Position numbers and translations under genes: made by a program. 55,871 bases of DNA from Fibrobacteria bacterium (GTDB taxonomy: Bacteria; Fibrobacterota; Fibrobacteria; UBA11236), in contig JAYUHW010000011.1 of assembly GCA_043766615.1 (NCBI GenBank), forward strand, positions 1 through 55,871. The letters run 5' to 3'. How positions within the stretch are numbered: position 1 is the first letter of the stretch; the number at the start of each line of letters is the position of its first letter. This document shows, piece after piece, positions 2,695 to 14,080 of the stretch. The notes under the pieces are model-generated. The model saw only the letters and a program-made list of their open reading frames with translations. It did no database searches and had not been told where the DNA came from.

Positions 2695-2857
2695 AAAAAG
2701 TAACCTCGATTAAAGCCTTTGCCTGGACTTTTAATGGTGGCTTGTACACAAAAGAGTACAGAACATGGCCAGTGCGAAGCCCCAATCTTCACGCCTTCAT
2801 TAACTTATCAAAATGCGGACGAATGCAAATCAGACCAATCCTAGAAATAATGATGAA

Positions 2858-3625
2858 ATGGGGCTTTTCAAGTTAAGCTACCTGGCCGTAGTGGGTTGCT
2901 TAGTAATAGTAAACTGCGAATTTGCGCCTAAATTAGCCGTGCAATCGGACCTATTGGCAGGATCTGGGTCAACGCCAGCTTCTCAAAAGGGGCCGAGTTG
3001 CAATAGCTGCCACACCTATCCATTGCATGATGTGAATCACAATTACCACCTAATGTCTGCCAACGTCAATCGAAACAACCTAGGCCAGCCGGAGCTGAAT
3101 GCCGTTACTACCTGTATGGATTGTCATTTCAATTCCATCCGTCACTTTTCCTATGTCCATTCCGATACCACCTGGATGGTCTCAAATGGAGTAGAGCTTA
3201 CCGGGCATTTTCATGCAAGCGACAAGATTATGAAGACTGTCAGCTACCCAAGGTGGCGCCCTCTACCCTATGCGAATATGGATACCACGCGTAAGGAAGC
3301 CTTGGCAACGGAAATCGACTCCTTGGTGTTTCGTCAAGCCCGCATGGGTGAAATGGTTGAATGGATGACATCTTGGGCGCATAACAACGGCGTAGTCGAT
3401 GTTGCCTTTGCACCCAATGATATCACGAAACCGGAATTTTTGGTTTCAGCCTACCGCCCAAAAGATTTGTCCTGTTCAACCGTTACCTGTCATAATCAGC
3501 GTGATCCCGGCTATCGCTGGATGTCACCCAGACTTGGACTGAGCAATTGCCCGTCACTAGATGGTCATGATCCTACTTGTCCTGGTGAAGTAGGGCCACC
3601 CGTTTCCCCATCGGTAGCCCCATGA
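2858..3625 (+). CDS. c-type cytochrome lipoprotein (two CxxCH plus one CxxxxCH motif)
   Basis: CNSCH (2999), CMDCH (3113), CSTVTCH (3473); signal-like MGLFKLSYLAVVGCLVIVNC. Start placed at ATG 2858 rather than 2813. Confidence 0.75.
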   Translation: MGLFKLSYLAVVGCLVIVNCEFAPKLAVQSDLLAGSGSTPASQKGPSCNSCHTYPLHDVNHNYHLMSANVNRNNLGQPELNAVTTCMDCHFNSIRHFSYVHSDTTWMVSNGVELTGHFHASDKIMKTVSYPRWRPLPYANMDTTRKEALATEIDSLVFRQARMGEMVEWMTSWAHNNGVVDVAFAPNDITKPEFLVSAYRPKDLSCSTVTCHNQRDPGYRWMSPRLGLSNCPSLDGHDPTCPGEVGPPVSPSVAP

Positions 3626-3852
3626 ATAAAATGAATCGGGACAGCATATTTATCTGCTTCATAATTTTGGTAACCTTGGCGTTACTGAGCGGATGCGCCT
3701 TTGTTCCCCAGGCCAATCGCGAATTCTTAAGCGACCCTATCATGCAACGGCATGATGACAATTTGGAAAGCGCTCTGGAAGGCCATGACATGCCACGTCG
3801 TGAGGGATCGGTGGGCGGCAGTTCCGGTTCAGGTGGCGGTTGCGGATGTTAA
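3622..3852 (+). CDS. DUF4266-family small lipoprotein
   Basis: Lipobox LLSG-C, 'REFLSDPIM', C-terminal REGSVGGSSGSGGGCGC; directly precedes DUF3570 as is typical. Confidence 0.85.
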   Translation: MNKMNRDSIFICFIILVTLALLSGCAFVPQANREFLSDPIMQRHDDNLESALEGHDMPRREGSVGGSSGSGGGCGC

Positions 3853-5033
3853 GTAATTACACGGCAAACCACGCTCTGACGTGGATTGTTATTTGTTGCG
3901 GGCTCCTGCAGGCAGAGTCGGGAAACACTTTAGAAATTAAGCATGAGTATTTCTGGGACCGAAACAGGGTCTGGAATCATACGCCCAGTTTCTCGTTGAA
4001 AAAATATTTTTCCAGAAGTTGGAGCCTGGGTTGGGAGCAGGAGTTGGACATTGTCAGCGGTGCCTCCCGAAGACTCGGTGCCGATAAGGTTGGACTATTT
4101 GGAAATCGGGAAGTAGATGCCGTTTCCAATGCATCCAAAGTGGAGGTCCGGCATTCCGAAAATCCTTCTCTAACTTATTCTCATAAAGGGGTGGCAATAG
4201 ACGCCTCATACTATATCAGCAGGGAAAACGATTATTTCTCTCAATCACCCGCTGGTTCCATCGCGTGGGATTTCAATGATCGAAACACTACACTAGGTGT
4301 GAACTATGCTGAATTCTTCGATAGGTTTGTACCCAAAGGCGCATACACTGGATTGGGAGGCAGGAAACGCATCACCAGTATGGGTGGAACCGTTGCGCAG
4401 TCCCTAACCTCATTAACTTTGGTTGGACTAACCGCGACCTGGATACAAAGCCATGGCTTTCTGGGGCACCCCTACAATCCTCCCGTTGACGTAAGTGGAA
4501 CCATGCTTTTGGAAAAAGTACCCGACACCAAACAGGCCGTGGCCTTATCAGGACAAATCGTTCAGGGGTATCATGTAGGTCAACGACTTGGATCCATAAA
4601 CCTGGATGCCCGCAGGTATCAAGATGACTGGGGAATGAAATCTTCGACCATTGATTTCAAATTGAGCCAGTATTTTACAGAGACCTCTTTTATCCGTTTT
4701 CGTCTAAGGTATTACAACCAATCCGGTTCTGTTTTTGCTAAACCCACGTATACAGGTCAGGAAACCTATCGGACGGGGGATATCCGATACTATCCGTTTA
4801 CATCCTGGCTTGGGGGTGTAAAAATCTCATCCGTTTTTCCTGACAGCTGGGGAGAATCCCTTTTCCTCCCGGATCGTTGGGATATCAAATATGATCAAAC
4901 TTTTCGGGATACGCGCGGGGATCCCGTTGGCACTGGCGCAGGAGTTCCTCGAAGTATTACCTATCAGCTCTATGCACCTGAAGATGCATATATGCAGGGC
5001 GTGTTTATGTTTGGCCTGTCTTTCAATCTATAA
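3846..5033 (+). CDS. DUF3570-family outer-membrane beta-barrel, predicted flavinylation substrate
   Basis: DIVSGAS (4047-4067), DAVSNAS (4116-4136), SRENDYFS, DFNDRNTTL, GFLGHPYN, RRYQDDWGM, RLRYYNQ; alternating C-terminal strand ending FGLSFNL. ATG 3846 overlaps the DUF4266 stop. Confidence 0.85.
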   Translation: MLSNYTANHALTWIVICCGLLQAESGNTLEIKHEYFWDRNRVWNHTPSFSLKKYFSRSWSLGWEQELDIVSGASRRLGADKVGLFGNREVDAVSNASKVEVRHSENPSLTYSHKGVAIDASYYISRENDYFSQSPAGSIAWDFNDRNTTLGVNYAEFFDRFVPKGAYTGLGGRKRITSMGGTVAQSLTSLTLVGLTATWIQSHGFLGHPYNPPVDVSGTMLLEKVPDTKQAVALSGQIVQGYHVGQRLGSINLDARRYQDDWGMKSSTIDFKLSQYFTETSFIRFRLRYYNQSGSVFAKPTYTGQETYRTGDIRYYPFTSWLGGVKISSVFPDSWGESLFLPDRWDIKYDQTFRDTRGDPVGTGAGVPRSITYQLYAPEDAYMQGVFMFGLSFNL

Positions 5034-5045
5034 AGGAGAACCATA

Positions 5046-5723
5046 ATGAAAATTTATTTACCCCATATGCTCTTCAAAACAGTCGCTCTATTTTGCATTG
5101 CTGGCCTATTTCAAGCTCAGGCCGCCAAGTTCACCAGATTACCTGAATTCACACTGCCGGATGTCGATGGAAAGGCTTGGAGCAGTTCCGCATTAAATGG
5201 AAAAGTATGTGTGGTTGATTTTTGGGCGACATGGTGCAATACCTGTAAGGAAACCATTCCCAAACTCGCCGAGCTGAGTAGTAAATACAAGGACCAAGGG
5301 CTTGTGGTGGTCGGAATCAGTGTTGACAAAGGCTCTTCCGAAAAAATAAGCAAGTCCGCAAAAAAACTTGGCATCAATTATTTGGTTTTACTCGATAAGG
5401 ACAATTCGCTCAGTAAATCCTTTGGCTTCACGGGCATCCCTTCTCTATATGTTTTTGACGGTCACGGAAATTTGAAAACAGCGATGCCGGGATACGATCC
5501 CGATCAAGAAAAACAACTGACCATTGCTACGGATCAGGCCCTAGCCGATCAAGTCGCGGAAACCGATAAGTTCAAGTCAATGGAGAAGGATAAGGAAAAA
5601 GAGAAAGAAAACGCCCGACTGGAAGAATTGGCCTTGGCCTCAAAAACGCAGGAAGGCTCGAGCAAAGTGTCGCATACCCGCGATGTTAAAAATAAAAAAA
5701 CCAAAAAGAAGGCGGGAACATGA
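5046..5723 (+). CDS. TlpA/ResA-like thiol-disulfide oxidoreductase with Lys/Glu-rich tail
   Basis: Signal peptide, VVDFWATWCNTC, GIPSLYVFD; RBS AAGGAG upstream. Confidence 0.92.
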   Translation: MKIYLPHMLFKTVALFCIAGLFQAQAAKFTRLPEFTLPDVDGKAWSSSALNGKVCVVDFWATWCNTCKETIPKLAELSSKYKDQGLVVVGISVDKGSSEKISKSAKKLGINYLVLLDKDNSLSKSFGFTGIPSLYVFDGHGNLKTAMPGYDPDQEKQLTIATDQALADQVAETDKFKSMEKDKEKEKENARLEELALASKTQEGSSKVSHTRDVKNKKTKKKAGT

Positions 5724-6418
5724 TCAGCAGTCAAAACTTAAGCACAGCTCTTTCAACCGGTTCCATTGGGGCCATAGTGTTGTGCTTCTTAGCAGGAGTT
5801 GGTTCCAGCTTTACCCCATGCATTTACCCTTTGATTCCCGTTACGATAAGTATCCTGGGCACTCGAAATGCGGAATCAAAATTTCGCGGATTCTTACTCA
5901 CCCTGTTTTACGTTGGAGGGATTGCCACAACTTACGCAGCCCTGGGAATGGTGGCAGCATTCACAGGCTCCCTATTTGGTTCCCTAAGCTCCAATTCATG
6001 GGTGCTCCTGGGCGTGGCCGCAGTTGTCATGGCCCTTGCGCTTAATATGCTCGATGTTTTTCAAATCAATTTTGCTCGACTCACTATGGGCGGGAACGGC
6101 CAGCATAAACAAGGGTTGTTTTCAAATTTTATCTATGGTTTGACGTTCGGACTTGTGGCCTCACCCTGCACGGCACCTCCACTAGCTGTCATACTCGCTT
6201 GGGTTGGATCTACGCACAATGTAATCATGGGTCCTTTGCTCCTTTTTGTTTTTGCTTTGGGTATGGGTTCCATTCTGATTATGATTGGCACATTCTCCTC
6301 TTTTCTCACCCGACTTCCACGTTCCGGCATGTGGATGGTCTACATCAAAAAAATCATGGGTTACATGATGGTTTTGATGTCAGGGTACTTCGTATTCCAA
6401 GCCGGCGTTCAATGGTAA
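5720..6418 (+). CDS. DsbD/CcdA-type transmembrane electron transporter
   Basis: About six hydrophobic helices with redox Cys motifs SFTPCIYPLIP and ASPCTAPPL, and LPRSGMWM. Confidence 0.92.
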   Translation: MISSQNLSTALSTGSIGAIVLCFLAGVGSSFTPCIYPLIPVTISILGTRNAESKFRGFLLTLFYVGGIATTYAALGMVAAFTGSLFGSLSSNSWVLLGVAAVVMALALNMLDVFQINFARLTMGGNGQHKQGLFSNFIYGLTFGLVASPCTAPPLAVILAWVGSTHNVIMGPLLLFVFALGMGSILIMIGTFSSFLTRLPRSGMWMVYIKKIMGYMMVLMSGYFVFQAGVQW

Positions 6419-6443
6419 AACCATCAATTAAATGGAGTCAAAA

Positions 6444-7232
6444 ATGAACAGAAAAATTATTTCAACTGCCACGGCAATTCTGATCACTTTCCTCTGCATA
6501 ACACGAAATAACGTAGTCGCCCGTCCCGATGCAGTCTCAGCCGCCAGCCTAACAGTAGCCGTCACCAGCGTAACGGCTACCACCGCTGTCATTACTTATT
6601 CAAAGGACAAATATGATTACGGAACACGGACGCTTTGTTATGATCCCGCTCCAGCTGTAGCGAAGAACAATTGCACAATTAAAAATGCCGCTGGAAATCA
6701 AGGAACATTCACCATCTCCGGATTAACATCCGGCATCGTCTACAATTTCAATATTCAAGCCATTGATACCCAAGGAGGAGAGAAACCTTATGCAACTGCT
6801 GGTTCCTTTACAACCTTAACTTCGACGGTTGTTTCTCCCGCTAGTATATCTACCCAGCCAGCCAATCAAACCGTCAAAGTCGGCTCAGCAGCGACATTTA
6901 GTGTTATTGCTGCAGGCACCCCCACCTTGACCTACCAGTGGCGGAAAGGCACGGTTAATATCAACGGCGCCACTTTGGCCAGCTATACGACGCCAGCAGC
7001 GGTAATTGGTGACAATGGCAGCCTGTATTCCGTAGTAATTAATAACGGTGCCATGCAACCTGTTACAAGTGCGAACGCAATTTTGACCGTACAACCCGTT
7101 ACCCAAATCGTATCCAATTCCCAAAGACTGCACGATTCCCATTCTATCCACGGCGAAGCCTATGATCTTAAGGGGCGGTCCATTCTTAAAAAAGGTAACC
7201 ACGCAGCTTCCTCCGTAGGACCCATAAAATAG
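6444..7232 (+). CDS. Secreted FN3 + Ig-like domain protein with N-terminal DAVSAAS motif and C-terminal sorting-like tail
   Basis: Signal peptide; FN3 (ISGLTSGIVYNFNIQA); Ig (ISTQPANQTV...LTYQWRK...DNGSLYSVVI); tail AYDLKGRSI. ATG 6444 has RBS GGAG. Confidence 0.8.
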   Translation: MNRKIISTATAILITFLCITRNNVVARPDAVSAASLTVAVTSVTATTAVITYSKDKYDYGTRTLCYDPAPAVAKNNCTIKNAAGNQGTFTISGLTSGIVYNFNIQAIDTQGGEKPYATAGSFTTLTSTVVSPASISTQPANQTVKVGSAATFSVIAAGTPTLTYQWRKGTVNINGATLASYTTPAAVIGDNGSLYSVVINNGAMQPVTSANAILTVQPVTQIVSNSQRLHDSHSIHGEAYDLKGRSILKKGNHAASSVGPIK

Positions 7233-7253
7233 TTTTGGCCCAATCCCCGTTCT

Positions 7254-7299
7254 GATTCTCCCCCTACTCCTGTTCCAGGGGAGAATCCTATATTTTTTT
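7254..7299 (+). terminator. Putative intrinsic terminator
   Basis: GATTCTCCCC (7254-7263) / GGGGAGAATC (7278-7287) 10-bp stem followed by CTATATTTTTTT. Confidence 0.5.
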
Positions 7300-7301
7300 C
7301 C

Positions 7302-7307
7302 TATAAT
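7302..7307 (+). promoter_or_regulatory. Candidate -10 element for apbE
   Basis: Exact TATAAT about 30 nt upstream of the apbE ATG; no clear -35. Confidence 0.3.
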
Positions 7308-7338
7308 AGAATCCTGTATACCTTGCAAGGAAGTTAAA

Positions 7339-8385
7339 ATGCCGTTCCGATTCGTGGCTCCATTTTTGGCCTTATTTATTATCAATTGCCAAGAGACGAC
7401 AAGAACACACAATTGGTTTGCCATGGATACGAACATGGCCGTTTCCCTTTTTGGGTCCACCCCTGTTTCCGATGACAGTGTCTTTTACCGTCTGGAAGCC
7501 GAAACAGAACGATTAAACCTTCTCTTTAGTGATTTCTCATCCCGTTCCGCTTTATCAGAAATAAAGGGTCACATCGGTGATACGGTAATGGTGCACCCGG
7601 AAATATATCAAGTTCTAAAAATCGCACTAGATGTAGGCGAAGCCACTCACGGTTCTTTTGATATCACCCTGCATGATTTGAAATGGATGTGGGGCCTCGG
7701 AAGTGGACAAACCGGTCACATACCAGATTCGACAAGCTTAGATTCCCTTCTGAAGGAAAATCCTACGTATCATTCGCTGTGGGAGACGCCCAACCATAGG
7801 CCTCCGCTGACCTTACTTCCAGGCAATCGAGCCGTGCTGCATCGCGAAAATACCCAAATTGATTTAGGCGCTATCGCCAAGGGTTTTATAGTGGATAAGC
7901 TACATGCATTGCTCGATTCCCTTGGTTGCCCCAACCATATTCTACAAGCCGGAGGAGAAATTCGGCTCGGTGGAAAAAAACAGTCCGGCGCCTGGAGCAT
8001 CGGCATACGACATCCCCGCGCGGCAGATTCCTTGAGCGGTTTGATTTCAACTACCACCCCTAAAGCTATTTCTACATCCGGGGATTATGAACGGTTTTTT
8101 GAATCCGATGGAAAACGTTATCATCACATCTTTGATCCCCGAACAGGTAAACCGGCACCCGTATATTGTGGTGTGACTGTTGTTACAGATTACAGTGTTT
8201 GGGCCGATGCCATGTCCACGTCGCTTTTTATTCTTGGCCCGGAAAAAGGCATGCCTGTAGCGCGTCAGTATCATACCAGCGCAGTTTGGTTTGAGGCGCG
8301 GCCTACTGGGTTATGCGCCATCCCCATGCCGGAAATTTTGCCCTTACTAAATCTACAGGGAATTTCTACCTGCAGCTCCCGATAA
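7339..8385 (+). CDS. apbE: FAD:protein FMN transferase (ApbE/FmnB), lipoprotein
   Basis: FAMDT, GSFDIT, IDLGAIAKGFIVD, AGGEI, WSIGIRHPR, ISTSGDYERF, RYHHIFDPRTG, ADAMST. Confidence 0.97.
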   Translation: MPFRFVAPFLALFIINCQETTRTHNWFAMDTNMAVSLFGSTPVSDDSVFYRLEAETERLNLLFSDFSSRSALSEIKGHIGDTVMVHPEIYQVLKIALDVGEATHGSFDITLHDLKWMWGLGSGQTGHIPDSTSLDSLLKENPTYHSLWETPNHRPPLTLLPGNRAVLHRENTQIDLGAIAKGFIVDKLHALLDSLGCPNHILQAGGEIRLGGKKQSGAWSIGIRHPRAADSLSGLISTTTPKAISTSGDYERFFESDGKRYHHIFDPRTGKPAPVYCGVTVVTDYSVWADAMSTSLFILGPEKGMPVARQYHTSAVWFEARPTGLCAIPMPEILPLLNLQGISTCSSR

Positions 8386-8393
8386 GGCCAGTA

Positions 8394-8786
8394 TTGCAAA
8401 CCCGCACATTTTTTCGCCCATTCGACGTTCTTGTTATCCTGTTAGTAATTGGTTCCGGCGCATGGGCCATGCTGACTTTTCGTTTTACTGAAGGCAGCCG
8501 AGCAGTCGTCTACATCGCCAATAAAAAATTCGCCTGGTACCCTTTGGCAGGCGAGACAAAACGGATCGCCATCCCATCTCAAATAGGAATAGTGTGGCTA
8601 GAAATAGGATCGGGCACAGCACGCGTAGTCAGCTCACCCTGTCCCAATAAACTTTGTGTTAAAACCGGAGTGGTTCGCCACAGCCATGAAGAAATCGTTT
8701 GTCTTCCGGCCAAGCTCCTGCTGACACTAGAAGGCCAAGATGGACCCGGACCCATGAAAGCCGGAGCCGATGCCATCACCTATTAA
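8394..8786 (+). CDS. NusG domain II (DUF1312/EetA-like) membrane-anchored protein
   Basis: N-terminal TM; SSPCPNKLCVKTG and IVCLPAKL motifs. TTG 8394 after TAAGG preferred over ATG 8313, which overlaps apbE by 73 nt. Confidence 0.85.
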   Translation: MQTRTFFRPFDVLVILLVIGSGAWAMLTFRFTEGSRAVVYIANKKFAWYPLAGETKRIAIPSQIGIVWLEIGSGTARVVSSPCPNKLCVKTGVVRHSHEEIVCLPAKLLLTLEGQDGPGPMKAGADAITY

Positions 8787-9876
8787 GAAATTAAATCTCA
8801 ACGCGGTGAAGCCACAGGCTTTTGCCTTGGCACTATTGATTGCTACCAGTCTGCAAATCATGGAAAACCTGGTGCCGCGCATTCCACTGTTTCCCTGGAT
8901 GCGAATTGGGCTTTCCTATGTCATTATTCTCCCTTTTCTCCTCGAGTACGGTGCGGCCCCCGCCTTTACACTTCTCCTGGCCCGTAACCTAATTGCCGTT
9001 CTATACGGTGGCCAACCGTTTTCGACGTTCCTGATCGGTACGGGAGCCGGTGCCCTGGCACTGTTGGGCCTGGGGCCAATGATTCGTTGGCTCACCCATC
9101 AGCGATTTCTGGGCGTTCTTGGTGCGAGTGTTCTTTTAGCCACAGCTTTTAATTTGGCGCAATTGGCATTGGTCAAATGGCTGCTCATTCGCCATGCAGG
9201 TTTCTATTTCATGATTGGACCCATGTTGGCTTGGTCGCTTTTTTCTGGAGGGCTCGTGGCCGCGTTGGTCCATTATTCCGAATCCGATTTATCGCGCATG
9301 TTCACGATAAGCGATAGTGGACCCCAAACTCAACCCGTGAGTCCATCCACGATTTCAAAACAGCCTTTCAACAACTTGCACTTTGGCTTTGGTTTAGCCG
9401 CCCTAGTTGGATTACTCCTTGGCAATTTATTTTGGATTCAAATTCCAGCACTGATTATTCTCATCTGGTTCTCACCCGATCGCGGTAAGCGGCTCATAGC
9501 TGCGTGGCCTTTTTTCTTCTACATCGCCTATCTGCACTTGTTCCATACACCGGGGAAGTTCTTTTTTAGAGACTGGGTAACCTATGAAGGACTGTCCCAA
9601 TTTGGCGTCAATTCCTTGCGGCTCGCCAATACCATTTTACTCGGCAGGATGCTGTCGCAAAAGTTTCCCTGGAAACTGGCTAGAAATGCTAAATCGCCTT
9701 ACTTGCAAGGCTTTCTCATGTCGTTGCCGTTGCTGACTAATATGTTTGAATCGAGTATGGAATTTGGTAGAGTGATTGGTAGGCAGTTTTTAAAGGGTCA
9801 ACGAAAGGGTTTGCTCACACCGGCCTTTGAGGCGTGGCGAACCAAAATGGATGCTGGGACCAAAGATGCCCTTTAA
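8770..9876 (+). CDS. Gx transporter family (EetB-like S-component) with C-terminal EcfT/CbiQ-like extension
   Basis: N-terminal LQIMENLVPRIPLFPWMRIGLSYV and AFNLAQL are Gx/Hpre_diP_synt_I-like; C-terminal half HLFHTPG...VTYEGL...SLRLANTILL resembles the EcfT coupling subunit. Confidence 0.75.
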   Translation: MPSPIKKLNLNAVKPQAFALALLIATSLQIMENLVPRIPLFPWMRIGLSYVIILPFLLEYGAAPAFTLLLARNLIAVLYGGQPFSTFLIGTGAGALALLGLGPMIRWLTHQRFLGVLGASVLLATAFNLAQLALVKWLLIRHAGFYFMIGPMLAWSLFSGGLVAALVHYSESDLSRMFTISDSGPQTQPVSPSTISKQPFNNLHFGFGLAALVGLLLGNLFWIQIPALIILIWFSPDRGKRLIAAWPFFFYIAYLHLFHTPGKFFFRDWVTYEGLSQFGVNSLRLANTILLGRMLSQKFPWKLARNAKSPYLQGFLMSLPLLTNMFESSMEFGRVIGRQFLKGQRKGLLTPAFEAWRTKMDAGTKDAL

Positions 9877-9890
9877 ATGATGCGTAGCTT

Positions 9891-11210
9891 TTAAAAAAAG
9901 TAGGCAACTTTGCTGGACCAATACCATTCACTGGGCTTGAAAAGTACGGCTTCCATCGCTGGTGGATTATTGTCTCCGTAGCCTTTGAAAATGCCGGGAC
10001 GGAAATGATCACTGGCAGCTTGGATGCTTATTTTAACATGCTTTTGAAACACCTTAGACCCATATAATGACCATTTAAAATTATCTTCGGAATAGTTGGT
10101 ATCCAACTTCCCGATAGGAAATGGTGTAGGTGCACCGTAATGGTTATAACCAGATAAATCGTCTTTGAATTTTGCAGTATACCTCTCAAACTCAAAAGAG
10201 AGCCGATCCAAAACCTTGAAAGTAGGCAAATTAATGCCAACCATAATTGGCATCCTATTTGAATAATTTCCGTAAAGAGCCCTGTATGGTAAACCATTGT
10301 CCAATCCAAGGAGGGCTACCTCCCCGTAGATTTTTAAATCCTCTGGACCAATTAATTCCAAATGCCCGAAAAGTGCCTTAAGGTCAATGGAGGCATTGGC
10401 CATGACTTTAGTCCCTTTAAAGGAAATCCGAGTTGTATCGTCCACTACTGGTAATGTATCAATATAAATATTATTGGTATCAGATGTTATCTTGTTATCG
10501 ATCGGAATCATGTGATAAAAATTGACCCCAGCTCCAATTCGGAAGAACCTACCAAAAGTATAGCTCGTAACATATGCTGGAGAAATGTCCCAGTAGGGAT
10601 AATATTCTGTTTCAAAGGCAAACAGAATATCGTTTTCAAAGCCACCTGTTTGGTGGTGGAATTGAAAACCTAAAGTATTGGCAACGGGCAGTACGTATTT
10701 CGTTTCAAAACCGGATAGCACATATCCTGGATAGACCGGCCCGCGCAATAAGTACAGGCCCAAATTTTGGGCATCAGGATTATAATCATACGCGAATAGC
10801 CCGGCACGAACGGAAAATTTGGTTTCGCCTTCATCCAAAACTCTGTAGTTGAAATTAGCGTTGGAGACATAAGGTGACACATCGACAGGAGCATATCCCC
10901 CCTCTCCATAATTTGCGGACAAAGAATGCCCGGCAACAGCACCAATGCCAGCCTCGATTCTAAGTTTTTCGGAAGGATTAATTGCAAAAGAGAACTGGGC
11001 TCCTGAGGAAATGAGCGGCTTCCAATCTAACCGTTTCCCTTGCGTCGTATCACTGCTTTTTACAATTGAAGCATACTGCATCCAGCCTGCTGCATGAAAT
11101 GTTTTGTTCGAAAAATCGACAGCATGTACTGACGTAGCGACCATTGCTATTGCACTTATCCCTTTGACGCCATTAATGCGAAGGATTTTCAAAAATGTGC
11201 AAAGACTCAT
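9891..11210 (-). CDS. Uncharacterised outer-membrane beta-barrel protein, paralogue 3
   Basis: Signal peptide, YDYNPDAQNLGLYLLRGPVYPG, C-terminal WYWSSKVAYFF beta-signal. Confidence 0.8.
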   Translation of the reverse strand: MSLCTFLKILRINGVKGISAIAMVATSVHAVDFSNKTFHAAGWMQYASIVKSSDTTQGKRLDWKPLISSGAQFSFAINPSEKLRIEAGIGAVAGHSLSANYGEGGYAPVDVSPYVSNANFNYRVLDEGETKFSVRAGLFAYDYNPDAQNLGLYLLRGPVYPGYVLSGFETKYVLPVANTLGFQFHHQTGGFENDILFAFETEYYPYWDISPAYVTSYTFGRFFRIGAGVNFYHMIPIDNKITSDTNNIYIDTLPVVDDTTRISFKGTKVMANASIDLKALFGHLELIGPEDLKIYGEVALLGLDNGLPYRALYGNYSNRMPIMVGINLPTFKVLDRLSFEFERYTAKFKDDLSGYNHYGAPTPFPIGKLDTNYSEDNFKWSLYGSKVFQKHVKISIQAASDHFRPGIFKGYGDNNPPAMEAVLFKPSEWYWSSKVAYFF

Positions 11211-11228
11211 TGATGCCTTCCTGAAGTC

Positions 11229-12566
11229 CTAGAAAAAATACGCAAGTTTAGTAGTCCAATACCAATCTTCAGGCGTTCGCATCGCCTCGATTCCTGCGTC
11301 CTGATCGTGGTTTCCGCCTAAACGCAGGTGATCGTTTGCGACCTGGGTAGATAATGCCAGGTTTCCAAGCAAAACCTTTGAAACATTCACCGACCATTTC
11401 CAATCGTCTCGTTTAGTATTGATTCGAGGATCGTCCACAACTGAGACCCAAGATCCGTTTCGAGCAGCTAAATTATCACCTGAAAGTTTGTTGGCATAAT
11501 ATTCGATTTCTATTGAAGAAGTCAGGAAATTAAAACCTGGAAGGTTGACTCCGAACATAATAGGCATGCGGCGTAGGATCTTGTTATACAACTTGGCATA
11601 GTTATGCACGCCAATAATTCCAACTTCACTGTAGATTACCAAATCATCTTTTCCAAAAAGACTTATTGCGTTTGAAAAAAAAGCTTTTGGATCCAATCTT
11701 AAGCGCGCGATGGCTTTAACGCCGCCCAAGGAACCGAGAATTGTATCGATAACTACCCCAGAAGTATCCTTGACGACAATAAAACACGGATTTTCTTGCC
11801 CTCCGTTGGCATACGGGCCGAGGAAGTTCGCGTTACAATCCTTGCCAGGTGAGGTAAGTTTCTTATTCATAGGAATCAAACGGCTGAAATTAATGCCAGC
11901 ACTGAGATCAAATCCTTTAAAGGCCGAAATTGTCATGACATCTGCAACAGAAATATCGTAAATTGGCTTCTCATCCATTTCGGCATTGACAATTAAATCA
12001 TTTTGCCAGGATCCTGCTTTCAATTTCCCAATCATTCCAAAAATATTTCCGGAACCAGAAACCAAGGTACCTGGATAAACATACCCGTGTAATAGATATA
12101 ATCCCAGATTCTTGGCATCAGGATTGTAAGTGTAGCCCATGGAACCAAAACTGAATTGTAAGCCACTCCCAACTGCATAGCCGCCCGAAGAGTAAGTCAA
12201 ACGGGCTTCTGATACAAATGGGACCCAAAAGGGATACCATTTATTAGCCTGCCCCGGAGCGCCTCTGGCCAAATGGACCATTATGGTTCCTATACCTAAA
12301 CCGCCGTCCCAATTATTATCAATCACAGCTTTAGAGGTTAGAACTGCACCTGAATTTCCAAGCCAATTATTTTCATAATCGTTGCCGTTACCAGGCAGTG
12401 AAAAACTATTCTCCACCCGTCCCAATTGAAGCCACCCTGCTCCATGGTATTCCAATTTTAATTCCTGAGACATTGCGCCATTCGAAATCGCACTCATTAA
12501 GAATACCCAAACTAAAACCTGCGTCAATGGCGACCTCGTTGCCCATGCATTCGGATGGCGACTCAA
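11229..12566 (-). CDS. Uncharacterised outer-membrane beta-barrel protein, paralogue 2
   Basis: YTYNPDAKNLGLYLLHGYVYPG, ends WYWTTKLAYFF; start placed at TTG 12566 (TTGA overlap with the upstream stop). Confidence 0.8.
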   Translation of the reverse strand: MSRHPNAWATRSPLTQVLVWVFLMSAISNGAMSQELKLEYHGAGWLQLGRVENSFSLPGNGNDYENNWLGNSGAVLTSKAVIDNNWDGGLGIGTIMVHLARGAPGQANKWYPFWVPFVSEARLTYSSGGYAVGSGLQFSFGSMGYTYNPDAKNLGLYLLHGYVYPGTLVSGSGNIFGMIGKLKAGSWQNDLIVNAEMDEKPIYDISVADVMTISAFKGFDLSAGINFSRLIPMNKKLTSPGKDCNANFLGPYANGGQENPCFIVVKDTSGVVIDTILGSLGGVKAIARLRLDPKAFFSNAISLFGKDDLVIYSEVGIIGVHNYAKLYNKILRRMPIMFGVNLPGFNFLTSSIEIEYYANKLSGDNLAARNGSWVSVVDDPRINTKRDDWKWSVNVSKVLLGNLALSTQVANDHLRLGGNHDQDAGIEAMRTPEDWYWTTKLAYFF

Positions 12567-14080
12567 AAGAAATACCCCATCCGAATTAAGAAATACCAAT
12601 CTTTGGGGGAAGCAAAAGCTTCTTGAGTTCCACCTTCAGCCTTTATTAATCCTGTCGCCACTGGCTTAGGCCTATAATGATCGTTTGCTACCTGACCAGA
12701 AATCCTGATATGATTGCTGATGACTTTTTCGGCGAGCACGGACCATTTGATATTATCCAAGGTTTGATTTTCCTTGTCTAGCGCCGTACCTTTGACACGA
12801 ACAGTATCTGCCTTTGCAGGATCGATTGGATCCGGTTTGATCCAGAAGCCAGTAAGAGTATCGATGCCATAATCCGCATAGCCAACCGGTTTTGGAGAGG
12901 GAATGGGATGGTTTTGAATTGTCCAACCTGCTACCGTATTATTGTTTCCAACGCGGGCGAGATCGCTGCGATACAAAGCGCCATAATATTCAACTTCAAG
13001 GGAAAGATGCGTCAACCAACCGCCCGTAGGAAAATTGAACCCCAACATCAGGGGGATGCGCTGTGAAATATCAGCATATGCTTTCCCATAATTTTTTAAA
13101 CCAATCACACCAACTTCCCCGTATAACTTTAGGTCTTCTGGATTTGATAATTGTTTCCCTAGTGTCTTTTGAAGGTCCAATCCGAACATCCCCATCAGCT
13201 TGGTGCCTTGGTGCGTGAAAAAAATTGTGTCAGTGGAACCGGGTGTCGTTTCAACATATCGACTCTTTTTGAATCCCAATTCCGCATCACTGAAATATTT
13301 TCCGGGTGTTTCCAATTTTGATTTATAGGCAAGTAACCGATAAAAATTTACACCGGCTCCAATTTCAAGTGGGCCTGCCTGAAATTTTGCGATATAGGCA
13401 AGACTCCAATCCAATGTCGGAGGAATTTCTCGTTCACAATTCAAAATCAAATCATGTGAAATGGCACCAATTTTTTGATGCAGGTTCAATCCTAAAATCG
13501 TACTTTTTGTCGTATCAACTGCAAAGTCCTGGTATCCACTCATCAGAATGCCTGGGTAAACGGGTCCACGCAGCAAATACAAGCCCAGGTTTTTGACATC
13601 AGCATTGTATTTATAAGGAAAACTGCCAAGGGTTATGCTTAGCGAAGGTGCAACTTTCTCTCCAAGAAAATAAGTTAATCGGGATTGAGTAAGGAAATTC
13701 TGGAAAAGTGAAATAGCCATCAGTTGTTGGGAGCCATTCCCAAGCGAATGGTTTATTTTCTGCACTCCAAAGCCGACCGCACCCACCAGGTTTTCCGAAA
13801 GATCAGCCTCAACTGTAAACTGAGCGCCCATACTCTGGAGAGTATTACCATTTAAATTGAGAACATTGTTTGGGGCTGCACCTCTTATCAGCGTATCAGT
13901 CATATGCATGATTCGACCGCCATCAAACCACGCCTGACCGTGGATTTGAAAGACTGGCGTCAATTCCGAGTAGGAAAAGGAAGCCAACAATCCAAGGGCT
14001 ATTCCGCCTAGCGCAAGGGGTTGCATTGCCAAAAATATTTTTTGTGACATAAATTTTTTGACTTGCTTCATCTGAATCAC
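12563..14080 (-). CDS. Uncharacterised outer-membrane beta-barrel protein, paralogue 1
   Basis: YKYNADVKNLGLYLLRGPVYPG, ends WYFLIRMGYFF; signal peptide; exact start uncertain. Confidence 0.8.
   Translation of the reverse strand: MIQMKQVKKFMSQKIFLAMQPLALGGIALGLLASFSYSELTPVFQIHGQAWFDGGRIMHMTDTLIRGAAPNNVLNLNGNTLQSMGAQFTVEADLSENLVGAVGFGVQKINHSLGNGSQQLMAISLFQNFLTQSRLTYFLGEKVAPSLSITLGSFPYKYNADVKNLGLYLLRGPVYPGILMSGYQDFAVDTTKSTILGLNLHQKIGAISHDLILNCEREIPPTLDWSLAYIAKFQAGPLEIGAGVNFYRLLAYKSKLETPGKYFSDAELGFKKSRYVETTPGSTDTIFFTHQGTKLMGMFGLDLQKTLGKQLSNPEDLKLYGEVGVIGLKNYGKAYADISQRIPLMLGFNFPTGGWLTHLSLEVEYYGALYRSDLARVGNNNTVAGWTIQNHPIPSPKPVGYADYGIDTLTGFWIKPDPIDPAKADTVRVKGTALDKENQTLDNIKWSVLAEKVISNHIRISGQVANDHYRPKPVATGLIKAEGGTQEAFASPKDWYFLIRMGYFF

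Follow-up and report, generated by a model that had tools for sequence, protein, structure and literature searches.

A gene on the forward strand of contig JAYUHW010000011.1 (an uncultured Fibrobacteria bacterium, assembly GCA_043766615.1; the whole 55,871-nucleotide stretch analyzed is referred to as the window) encodes an exported protein with a fibronectin type III (FN3) and an immunoglobulin-like (Ig) domain. Its position next to apbE raises the question of whether this FN3-Ig protein is itself modified by ApbE, the transferase that attaches flavin mononucleotide (FMN) from flavin adenine dinucleotide (FAD) to protein. The question has wider relevance, as flavinylation by ApbE is widely used to wire redox chemistry outside the cytoplasm. 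A sequence-only reading of the window had proposed that the protein is a new ApbE substrate and, further, a surface-exported, adhesin-like carrier of flavin to insoluble acceptors. The first part is strongly supported by comparison, through invariance of the motif, its match to the sites of the known substrate DUF3570, the place of the gene in its cluster, and co-occurrence with ApbE and DUF3570, while the surface and adhesin part gained no direct support. We consider it likely that the protein belongs to a new class of ApbE substrate, in which a natural N-terminal flavin tag sits on an FN3 scaffold working in the DUF3570 electron-transfer system; that the protein is flavinylated at all is probable to about the same degree.

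The N-terminal motif and its conservation

The signal peptide, the D-A-V-S-A-A-S motif, the FN3 domain with its cysteine pair, the Ig domain, and the Y-D-L-K-G-R tail were all found with the content and at the positions that the sequence-only reading had listed, and the gene does lie immediately upstream of apbE, which starts after a gap of 106 nt (Table 1). The reading frame opens with an ATG at 6444 preceded by GGAG at 6434-6437, and an alternative in-frame ATG at 6432 would add four residues. Signal peptides were judged from sequence and alignment, without a dedicated predictor. The column of A26, at position -1 of the predicted cleavage site, is invariant in an alignment of 45 sequences, and the predicted mature N-terminus is therefore R-P-D-A-V-S-A-A-S, in which Ser35 (6546-6548), the predicted FMN acceptor, would be mature residue 9.

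ApbE recognizes the motif D-x-x-[S/T]-G-A-[S/T], of which seven residues are enough, and tags work best at a protein terminus (PMC12052999; this paper, PMC8238504, and PMC9973259 are cited here from portions of their text). DAVSAAS has the expected Asp at position 1, Ser/Thr at 4, Ala at 6, and Ser acceptor at 7, and lacks the Gly at 5. Two other properties of an ApbE substrate are present as well, namely a site predicted to be extracytosolic (predicted signal peptide, conserved AxA) and a presumed cognate ApbE, encoded directly downstream.

A first homologue search returned 109 proteins, made up of 45 family members (the window's own included) and 64 proteins matching through the Ig domain only, one of which contains the motif. 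Family members are mostly 164-187 residues long and consist of signal peptide, motif, FN3 domain, and tail. The N-terminal pattern D..[ST][GASN]A[ST] is present in 43 of the 45, the exceptions reading DAVSAPS and DAVSSSS, and in the alignment D29 and S35 are invariant, with A33 and A34 nearly so. A profile search of 1.84 billion representatives yielded 57 proteins at E <= 1e-30, and its best 150 matches comprised 25 small single-FN3 family members and 125 giant multi-FN3 proteins. Nineteen additional small members were thereby obtained, all of which keep D-x-x-x-x-A-S (variants included DAVSGAS, with the canonical Gly, DAICGAS, DAVSMAS, and DAIAAAS), giving a core family of 64 sequences (45 plus 19).

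The pattern used to extract the motif from these 64 sequences required the Asp and the final Ser; a match stood in place in every sequence, in agreement with the alignment columns. Position 1 is D in 64 and position 7 is S in 64; between them, position 2 is A in 51, V in 12, and I in 1, position 3 is V in 53 and I in 11, position 4 is S in 50, T in 12, A in 1, and C in 1, position 5 is A in 59, S in 2, G in 2, and M in 1, and position 6 is A in 62, P in 1, and S in 1. The AxA cleavage site lies two residues ahead of the motif Asp in 56/64 (Ala three before Asp). Cleavage within or after the motif, or a lack of conservation, had been named beforehand as grounds for giving up the substrate proposal; in the event the motif remains in the predicted mature chain and is conserved.

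The two sites of the DUF3570 protein encoded in the same cluster read DIVSGAS and DAVSNAS, bearing out the claim that the FN3-Ig motif is close to them. Across 88 DUF3570 homologues, D, A6, and S7 are present at the sites in 88/88, position 5 of site 2 is G in 78, S in 4, A in 4, and N in 2, and the exact string DAVSAAS occupies site 2 in three. The conservation profile of the FN3-Ig family thus matches both DUF3570 sites and the ApbE motif. In the genome from which the window comes (78.8% complete), the pattern D..[ST][GASN]A[ST] has 26 matches in 6462 crude open reading frames (ORFs; 1.6 M residues), 10 of which fall in the five DUF3570 paralogues, the single FMN_bind protein, and the FN3-Ig gene. 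This and two further background estimates, from shuffles and from giant FN3 proteins (both below), show the motif to be rare.

The motif is also kept in relatives of only 25-28% identity, indicating that it outlasts the rest of the sequence. Two syntenic genes from another Fibrobacterota family (f8), at ~28% identity and without the cysteine pair, carry D-A-V-S-G-S-S and D-A-S-S-G-S-S directly past the signal peptide; both stand directly after DsbD, and apbE is the next gene in one of them (L038). In genomes without the core family, a protein of 370-400 residues fills the slot before apbE. This sister family is laid out as signal peptide, C-D-x-T-T-G-A-S-C, FN3, two CarboxypepD_reg domains, and a Y-D-x-[RK]-G tail, and its FN3 domain shows the same R-x-F-C-Y...K-C pattern as the core family. 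In a BLASTP alignment (E 7e-6, 25% identity) its motif lines up residue by residue with D29-S35 in the FN3-Ig protein, and all seven members from the taxonomic family of the window have it (DVTTGAS twice, DATTGAS three times, DATTSAS, and DATSAAS). Gly stands at position 5 in both f8 relatives and in five of these seven. Sister-family genes (L039:5054-6229, L040:2834-3964, and L048-L053) also occur beside other DUF3570 copies, and one genome (G256) has three of them.

Gene context and known ApbE substrates

Nineteen distinct loci were compared, from six genome contigs, six metagenomes, six hits of a phylum scan, and the window, two of them without upstream sequence. In all 17 informative loci the FN3 gene lies within a cytochrome-DUF4266-DUF3570-TlpA-CcdA cluster, directly after either the DsbD/thioredoxin gene (13 loci, window included) or DUF3570 (4 loci). 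Downstream sequence is available for 13 loci; the next gene is apbE in six, NusG_II followed by an EetB-like gene in four, and neither in three. One genome without an adjacent apbE carries apbE elsewhere. The expectation that homologues would retain the motif only beside apbE did not hold, as the motif is kept regardless of the neighbor. With the motif independent of apbE adjacency, yet the gene in the DUF3570 cluster in 17/17 loci, the adjacency test was answered otherwise than expected.

The core family is found in 13 of 296 Fibrobacterota genomes (E <= 1e-15). In the taxonomic family of the window (32 genomes), 11 genomes have the gene, with DUF3570 in 11/11 and ApbE in 10/11; among the 21 genomes without it, 10 have ApbE and 10 have DUF3570. 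In genus g6 just two of 12 genomes have ApbE, and the same two have DUF3570 and the FN3 gene. These tallies cover related, non-independent genomes and carry no test statistic; they include the unpublished G259 (gene-negative, ApbE-positive, DUF3570-positive), on which no claim rests.

To our knowledge, few folds are established as ApbE substrates, these being FMN_bind, NqrB/RnfD, DUF2271, and DUF3570. The cluster in the window corresponds to the 'DsbD system' of Meheust et al. 2021 in eLife (DUF3570, DUF4266, thioredoxin-like, DsbD, and ApbE; PMC8238504), and in Chlorobium luteolum ApbE flavinylates both DUF3570 motifs (PMC8238504). The same study used co-expression with ApbE in E. coli for DUF2271 and DUF3570. 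A preprint by Haft locates JDVT-CTERM proteins in DUF4266/DUF3570/TlpA neighborhoods. The FN3-Ig protein shares with DUF3570 (PF12094; PMC8238504) its operon, its presumed cognate ApbE, and the motif type D-x-V-[ST]-[GSAN]-A-S. DUF3570, however, is a predicted 16-strand barrel of ~400 residues with two internal sites in one long loop, whereas the FN3-Ig protein has a soluble FN3 domain, a single site at the mature N-terminus, and no PF12094 match. DUF2271 (PF10029; PMC8238504) is likewise a small exported domain with a single ApbE-type site beside apbE that was found through gene neighborhoods, but the FN3-Ig protein occurs in a DUF3570 cluster of Fibrobacterota. In the FMN_bind proteins NqrC, RnfG, PplA, and NosR (PF04205), FMN is attached outside the cytosol as a phosphoester to the last Ser/Thr of D-x-x-[ST]-G-A-[ST] (PMC12052999), which is what is predicted here; their site is in an internal loop of a fold dedicated to flavin binding, while that of the FN3-Ig protein is terminal. 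Pfam gave no match to PF10029 or PF04205 in the window protein, nor among the best 25 of 29 families for 43 homologues (E <= 1). The nearest parallel is the engineered Flavin-tag (Tong et al. 2021, via PMC12052999), a seven-residue ApbE motif at the terminus of an unrelated scaffold. The Flavin-tag is synthetic, whereas the FN3-Ig arrangement is natural and conserved, with conserved neighboring loops and a dedicated gene cluster.

The FN3-Ig protein is thus probably a new substrate architecture for a known modification, and the candidate, an FN3 scaffold whose mature N-terminus carries a bare site of seven residues, would be the natural counterpart of the Flavin-tag. The target classes named in the headings of a review are NQR, RNF, NosR, reductive dehalogenases, and extracellular electron transfer (PMC12052999), and the 2021 survey states that less prevalent ApbE substrates are still unidentified (PMC8238504). 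No FN3-type or natural N-terminal site is described in the literature on ApbE flavinylation that was covered, which excludes the eLife supplementary table, where fn3 genes could be listed. The eLife main text (PMC8238504) does not contain the words 'fibronectin', 'Ig-like', 'NusG', or 'Fibrobacter', and the literature search found no work on ApbE flavinylation with Fibrobacter.

Fold, proposed mechanism, and competing explanations

The Pfam fn3 model matches the window protein with E 6.3e-4 and 20.3 bits, under its 25-bit cut-off, and matches 43/43 short homologues (26 bits for P0016). An AlphaFold2 (AF2) model has a predicted local distance difference test score (pLDDT) >90 over approximately residues 41-120, and its best Foldseek matches are all FN3 domains or monobodies at probability 1.00; as modeled, the N-terminal domain is an FN3 fold. 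Cys65 (6636-6638) and Cys77 (6672-6674) are invariant in the 45-sequence alignment, and both the B-C loop (54-60; D55, Y57, Y59, G60) and the F-G loop (108-115; D108, T109, E113, P115) are nearly so. Residues 31-33 and 36-43 are modeled as strands A and A', which meet at a kink holding Ser35. In the FN3 fold the B-C and F-G loops, which are the variable ones in ordinary FN3 domains, share a pole with the N-terminus. The location of the motif at this pole, together with the near invariance of both loops, leads us to infer a flavin cradle.

The Ig domain follows the FN3 domain as an insertion limited to the window and its closest relatives, P0002/L003 and L004 (the FN3 half of L004 is a 93% match to the window, and its contig ends within the Ig region). 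The I-set match (PF07679) is marginal, at 24.0 bits against a cut-off of 23.7 and over residues 134-174 only, and the AF2 model is poor over this part; Ig_3 matches with E 5e-6, and the domain is also backed by the 64 Ig-only matches. At 45-60% identity, the inserted domain resembles Ig domains in large proteins, of which the few with a named source belong to other phyla (Rhodoferax, Acidiferrales). That a domain so similar to those of large proteins is absent from all other family members suggests recent domain acquisition. The spacer between FN3 head and tail varies across the family and its relatives, being absent, an Ig domain, Thr-Asp-Pro repeats (P0252), or two transthyretin-like (CarboxypepD_reg) domains. 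The locus would add a component to the DUF3570 system, and this head-spacer-tail design offers a handle on where the system delivers electrons.

The tail had been described as sorting-like, of which its conservation within the family stands: in the 45-sequence alignment G244 is invariant, and D241 and R245 are nearly so. The window protein has no NCBIfam match, and among the 14 NCBIfam families matched by 43 homologues (E <= 1) there is no model of the type IX secretion system or other sorting domain. The pattern [FYVIL]D..GR occurs in the last 40 residues of 16 out of 4513 crude ORFs as compared to 12.9 +/- 2.9 in internal windows, so that this crude test of the tail as a genome-wide sorting signal showed no C-terminal enrichment; an earlier, looser test in the same genome had given 35 versus 27. 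About ten other ORFs with signal peptides (for example on contigs C153, C268, C381, and C414) have a similar [FVY]-D-x-x-G-R tail followed by 10-25 residues, and a sorting signal specific to the lineage may still exist.

In the mechanism that we propose, the protein would be exported by the Sec route and its signal peptide cut after A26, leaving DAVSAAS at mature residues 3-9. ApbE from the downstream gene, probably an exported lipoprotein, would then attach FMN from FAD to Ser35 by a phosphoester, the FAD probably coming from the EetB-like exporter encoded at this locus. EetB, a member of PF07456, is the subunit of a FAD exporter that binds the substrate, and PF07456 is often colocalized with apbE; in Listeria, the EetB-containing exporter is required for extracytosolic flavinylation (PMC9973259). 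The motif would sit at the start of strand A, at the FN3 pole holding the B-C and F-G loops, and the flavin would rest there in the conserved cradle, at the far end from the C-terminal linker and tail. The FN3 protein would then provide the DUF3570 system with an additional flavin-based redox carrier. Electrons in this system may pass from cytosolic thiols through CcdA to the TlpA-like thioredoxin, DUF4266, and the DUF3570 flavins, with a c-type cytochrome alongside.

The AF2 model of DUF3570 (pLDDT 86, predicted template modeling score 0.83) has 16 long antiparallel strands, and its best Foldseek matches in the Protein Data Bank are outer-membrane barrels such as OccK, AlgE, PelB, and BcsC. 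Long odd-numbered connections (29, 20, 25, and 25 residues) alternate with short even-numbered ones, as in outer-membrane proteins, and in the model both flavin sites fall in the loop of 29 residues that joins strands 3 and 4. By this rule of long loops and short turns, the flavin-site loop would lie on the outer face or be folded into the lumen. The word 'barrel' is absent from the eLife main text (PMC8238504). A complex prediction for DUF3570 (26-397) and the FN3 head (27-135) gave an interaction score (ipSAE) of 0.00 in both runs, which were made without controls and speak neither for nor against binding. In a bolder and doubtful extension, electrons would cross the outer membrane through a conduit of flavins whose outer end is the tethered FN3 flavoprotein, with two FMNs in the DUF3570 barrel, a third at the FN3 tip, a variable spacer, and the tail as anchor; together with the cytochrome and the CcdA/thioredoxin relay, the conduit would carry electrons from cytosolic thiols to extracellular substrates. 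If true, this would be a flavin counterpart of the multiheme MtrCAB system.

Several observations weigh against flavinylation of the FN3-Ig protein. We know of no FN3 flavoprotein; the fold is plain FN3, without a match to FMN_bind, DUF2271, or DUF3570, and FMN attachment is argued here from comparison. Among the loci with downstream sequence, apbE is not adjacent in 7/13, and one genome with the gene (G263, 82% complete) has no ApbE that could be found. The window protein and the large majority of the core family have Ala at position 5 of the motif, where the consensus has Gly, and in Klebsiella fumarate reductase a Gly-to-Ala change in the motif cuts flavinylation to ~50% (PMC12052999); in DUF3570 sites of this lineage, A, S, and N are tolerated at position 5 as well (10/88 at site 2). 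Position 6 is Pro or Ser in two core members, and one further locus (L008:6134-8525) has an FN3 motif reading D-A-V-S-A-D-S. At that locus the normal C-terminal strand is missing from DUF3570, the cytochrome gene is broken into two frames, and there is no apbE within 8 kb, so that it represents either a decaying cluster or poor assembly. Lastly, mean column identity is 48% across the whole domain, and conservation of the motif could therefore be partly structural.

This last point leads to the strongest alternative, which we nevertheless judge unlikely: that the motif is conserved for a reason other than flavin, either as a structural cap or part of strand A or as the face that DUF3570, the cytochrome, or a sorting machine contacts. 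In that case the protein would serve the DUF3570 cluster as an accessory subunit with no redox role, and the likeness to ApbE motifs would reflect convergent small-residue composition. The modeling of residues 31-33 as a strand, the high conservation of the entire domain, the ordinary fold, and the near absence of Gly at position 5 in the core family all fit this explanation, as does the fact that the gene tracks DUF3570 more tightly than apbE. However, ApbE sites are defined by the very positions that are invariant here (D1, A6, and S7, with S/T at 4), the DUF3570 sites of the operon show the same pattern, and the motif persists at 25-28% identity while the domain diverges, with canonical TGAS in relatives. 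Nor do generic FN3 proteins have such an element, as the 125 giant proteins (318,377 residues) contain 25 loose matches and none of the family type.

A second alternative, and one with distinctly less to recommend it, accepts flavinylation but assigns the protein a main role other than electron transfer in the DUF3570 chain: it might store or buffer flavin in the periplasm, act as a decoy, or regulate how active ApbE is toward the five DUF3570 paralogues. The presence of one ApbE against five DUF3570 paralogues in the genome would suit such a role, and the gene is accessory, in that about nine genomes of the taxonomic family with ApbE and DUF3570 lack the core gene (E <= 1e-15), at least four of which hold a distant relative. 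Conservation of the B-C and F-G loops, the disulfide pair, and the C-terminal tail speaks against it, and the modular spacer points to a positioned functional head as opposed to a buffer. Finally, that the heptapeptide arose by chance in a Ser/Thr/Ala-rich protein is effectively refuted, since, although the motif occurs somewhere in 2% of shuffles of the mature protein (3991/200000), it falls within the first 12 residues in just 0.05% (105/200000) and is kept across 64 homologues and distant relatives.

Features of the window cluster

The FN3-Ig gene is the sixth of nine closely packed genes on the forward strand (2813-9876; ORF list of the window), the features of which are collected in Table 1.

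Table 1. Coordinates of the FN3-Ig gene, its parts, and the surrounding cluster in the window
Feature	Position	Strand	Basis and remarks
c-type cytochrome candidate	2813..3625	+	CNSCH, CMDCH, CxxxxCH; weak MtrC-like Pfam match; opens cluster
DUF4266 small protein	3622..3852	+	Pfam; C-terminal C-G-C; family described in part of PMC8238504
DUF3570, known ApbE substrate class	3840..5033	+	Pfam; motifs 4047-4067, 4116-4136; predicted 16-strand beta-barrel
TlpA/ResA-like thioredoxin-fold protein	5046..5723	+	Pfam, NCBIfam
CcdA/DsbD transmembrane thiol-disulfide electron transporter	5720..6418	+	Pfam, NCBIfam
Exported FN3-Ig protein, candidate ApbE substrate, 262 residues	6444..7232	+	ORF, ribosome-binding site, Pfam, 45-member alignment
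Signal peptide (predicted), residues 1-26	6444..6521	+	MNRK, hydrophobic core, V-V-A; predicted cleavage after V-V-A
D29-A-V-S-A-A-S35, ApbE-type flavinylation motif	6528..6548	+	GAT GCA GTC TCA GCC GCC AGC
FN3 domain, approximately residues 31-125	6534..6818	+	AF2 model, Foldseek, conservation
Ig (I-set/Ig_3) domain between FN3 and tail	6843..7103	+	Pfam; lineage-specific insertion
Y-D-L-K-G-R C-terminal tail motif	7161..7178	+	Alignment
Terminator-like hairpin and U-run	7254..7299	+	10-bp stem 7254-7287; U-run 7293-7299
apbE (FAD:protein FMN transferase)	7339..8385	+	Pfam ApbE 231.9 bits
NusG_II-domain protein	8313..8786	+	Pfam; syntenic in other loci
PF07456 (EetB-like) membrane protein, candidate FAD-exporter subunit	8770..9876	+	Pfam; role by part of PMC9973259

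The cytochrome candidate is syntenic in six other loci (L002, L003, L005, L006, L008, and L011). It is lipoprotein-like and recurs with DUF4266 and DUF3570 in two paralogous triads on contigs C330 and C469 of the same genome, both without an FN3 gene. This genome (G000) was found to hold one ApbE, the copy in the window, along with five DUF3570 paralogues and one FMN_bind protein; NqrB/RnfD was not found in it at its 78.8% completeness.

Strand folding of the hairpin between the FN3-Ig gene and apbE gave a free energy of -17.4 kcal/mol and a z-score of -2.33, with 5/200 shuffles equally good. A pattern scan for terminators did not report it, probably because its loop is larger than the 3-8 nt limit of the scan. 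If it acts as a terminator, the FN3-Ig gene would end the DUF3570 operon, and apbE and the NusG_II and EetB-like genes may form a separate transcription unit. A TATAAT-like stretch comes after the hairpin and U-run, still ahead of apbE. The NusG_II and PF07456 genes come after apbE, or straight after the FN3 gene, in most loci, and no ECF-T or ATPase genes were seen adjoining them within the stretch examined. Beyond the cluster, on the reverse strand, positions 9891-14080 hold three tandem paralogous genes (439, 456, and 505 residues) with signal-peptide-like starts, each encoding a C-terminal Y-F-F as in outer-membrane barrel proteins.

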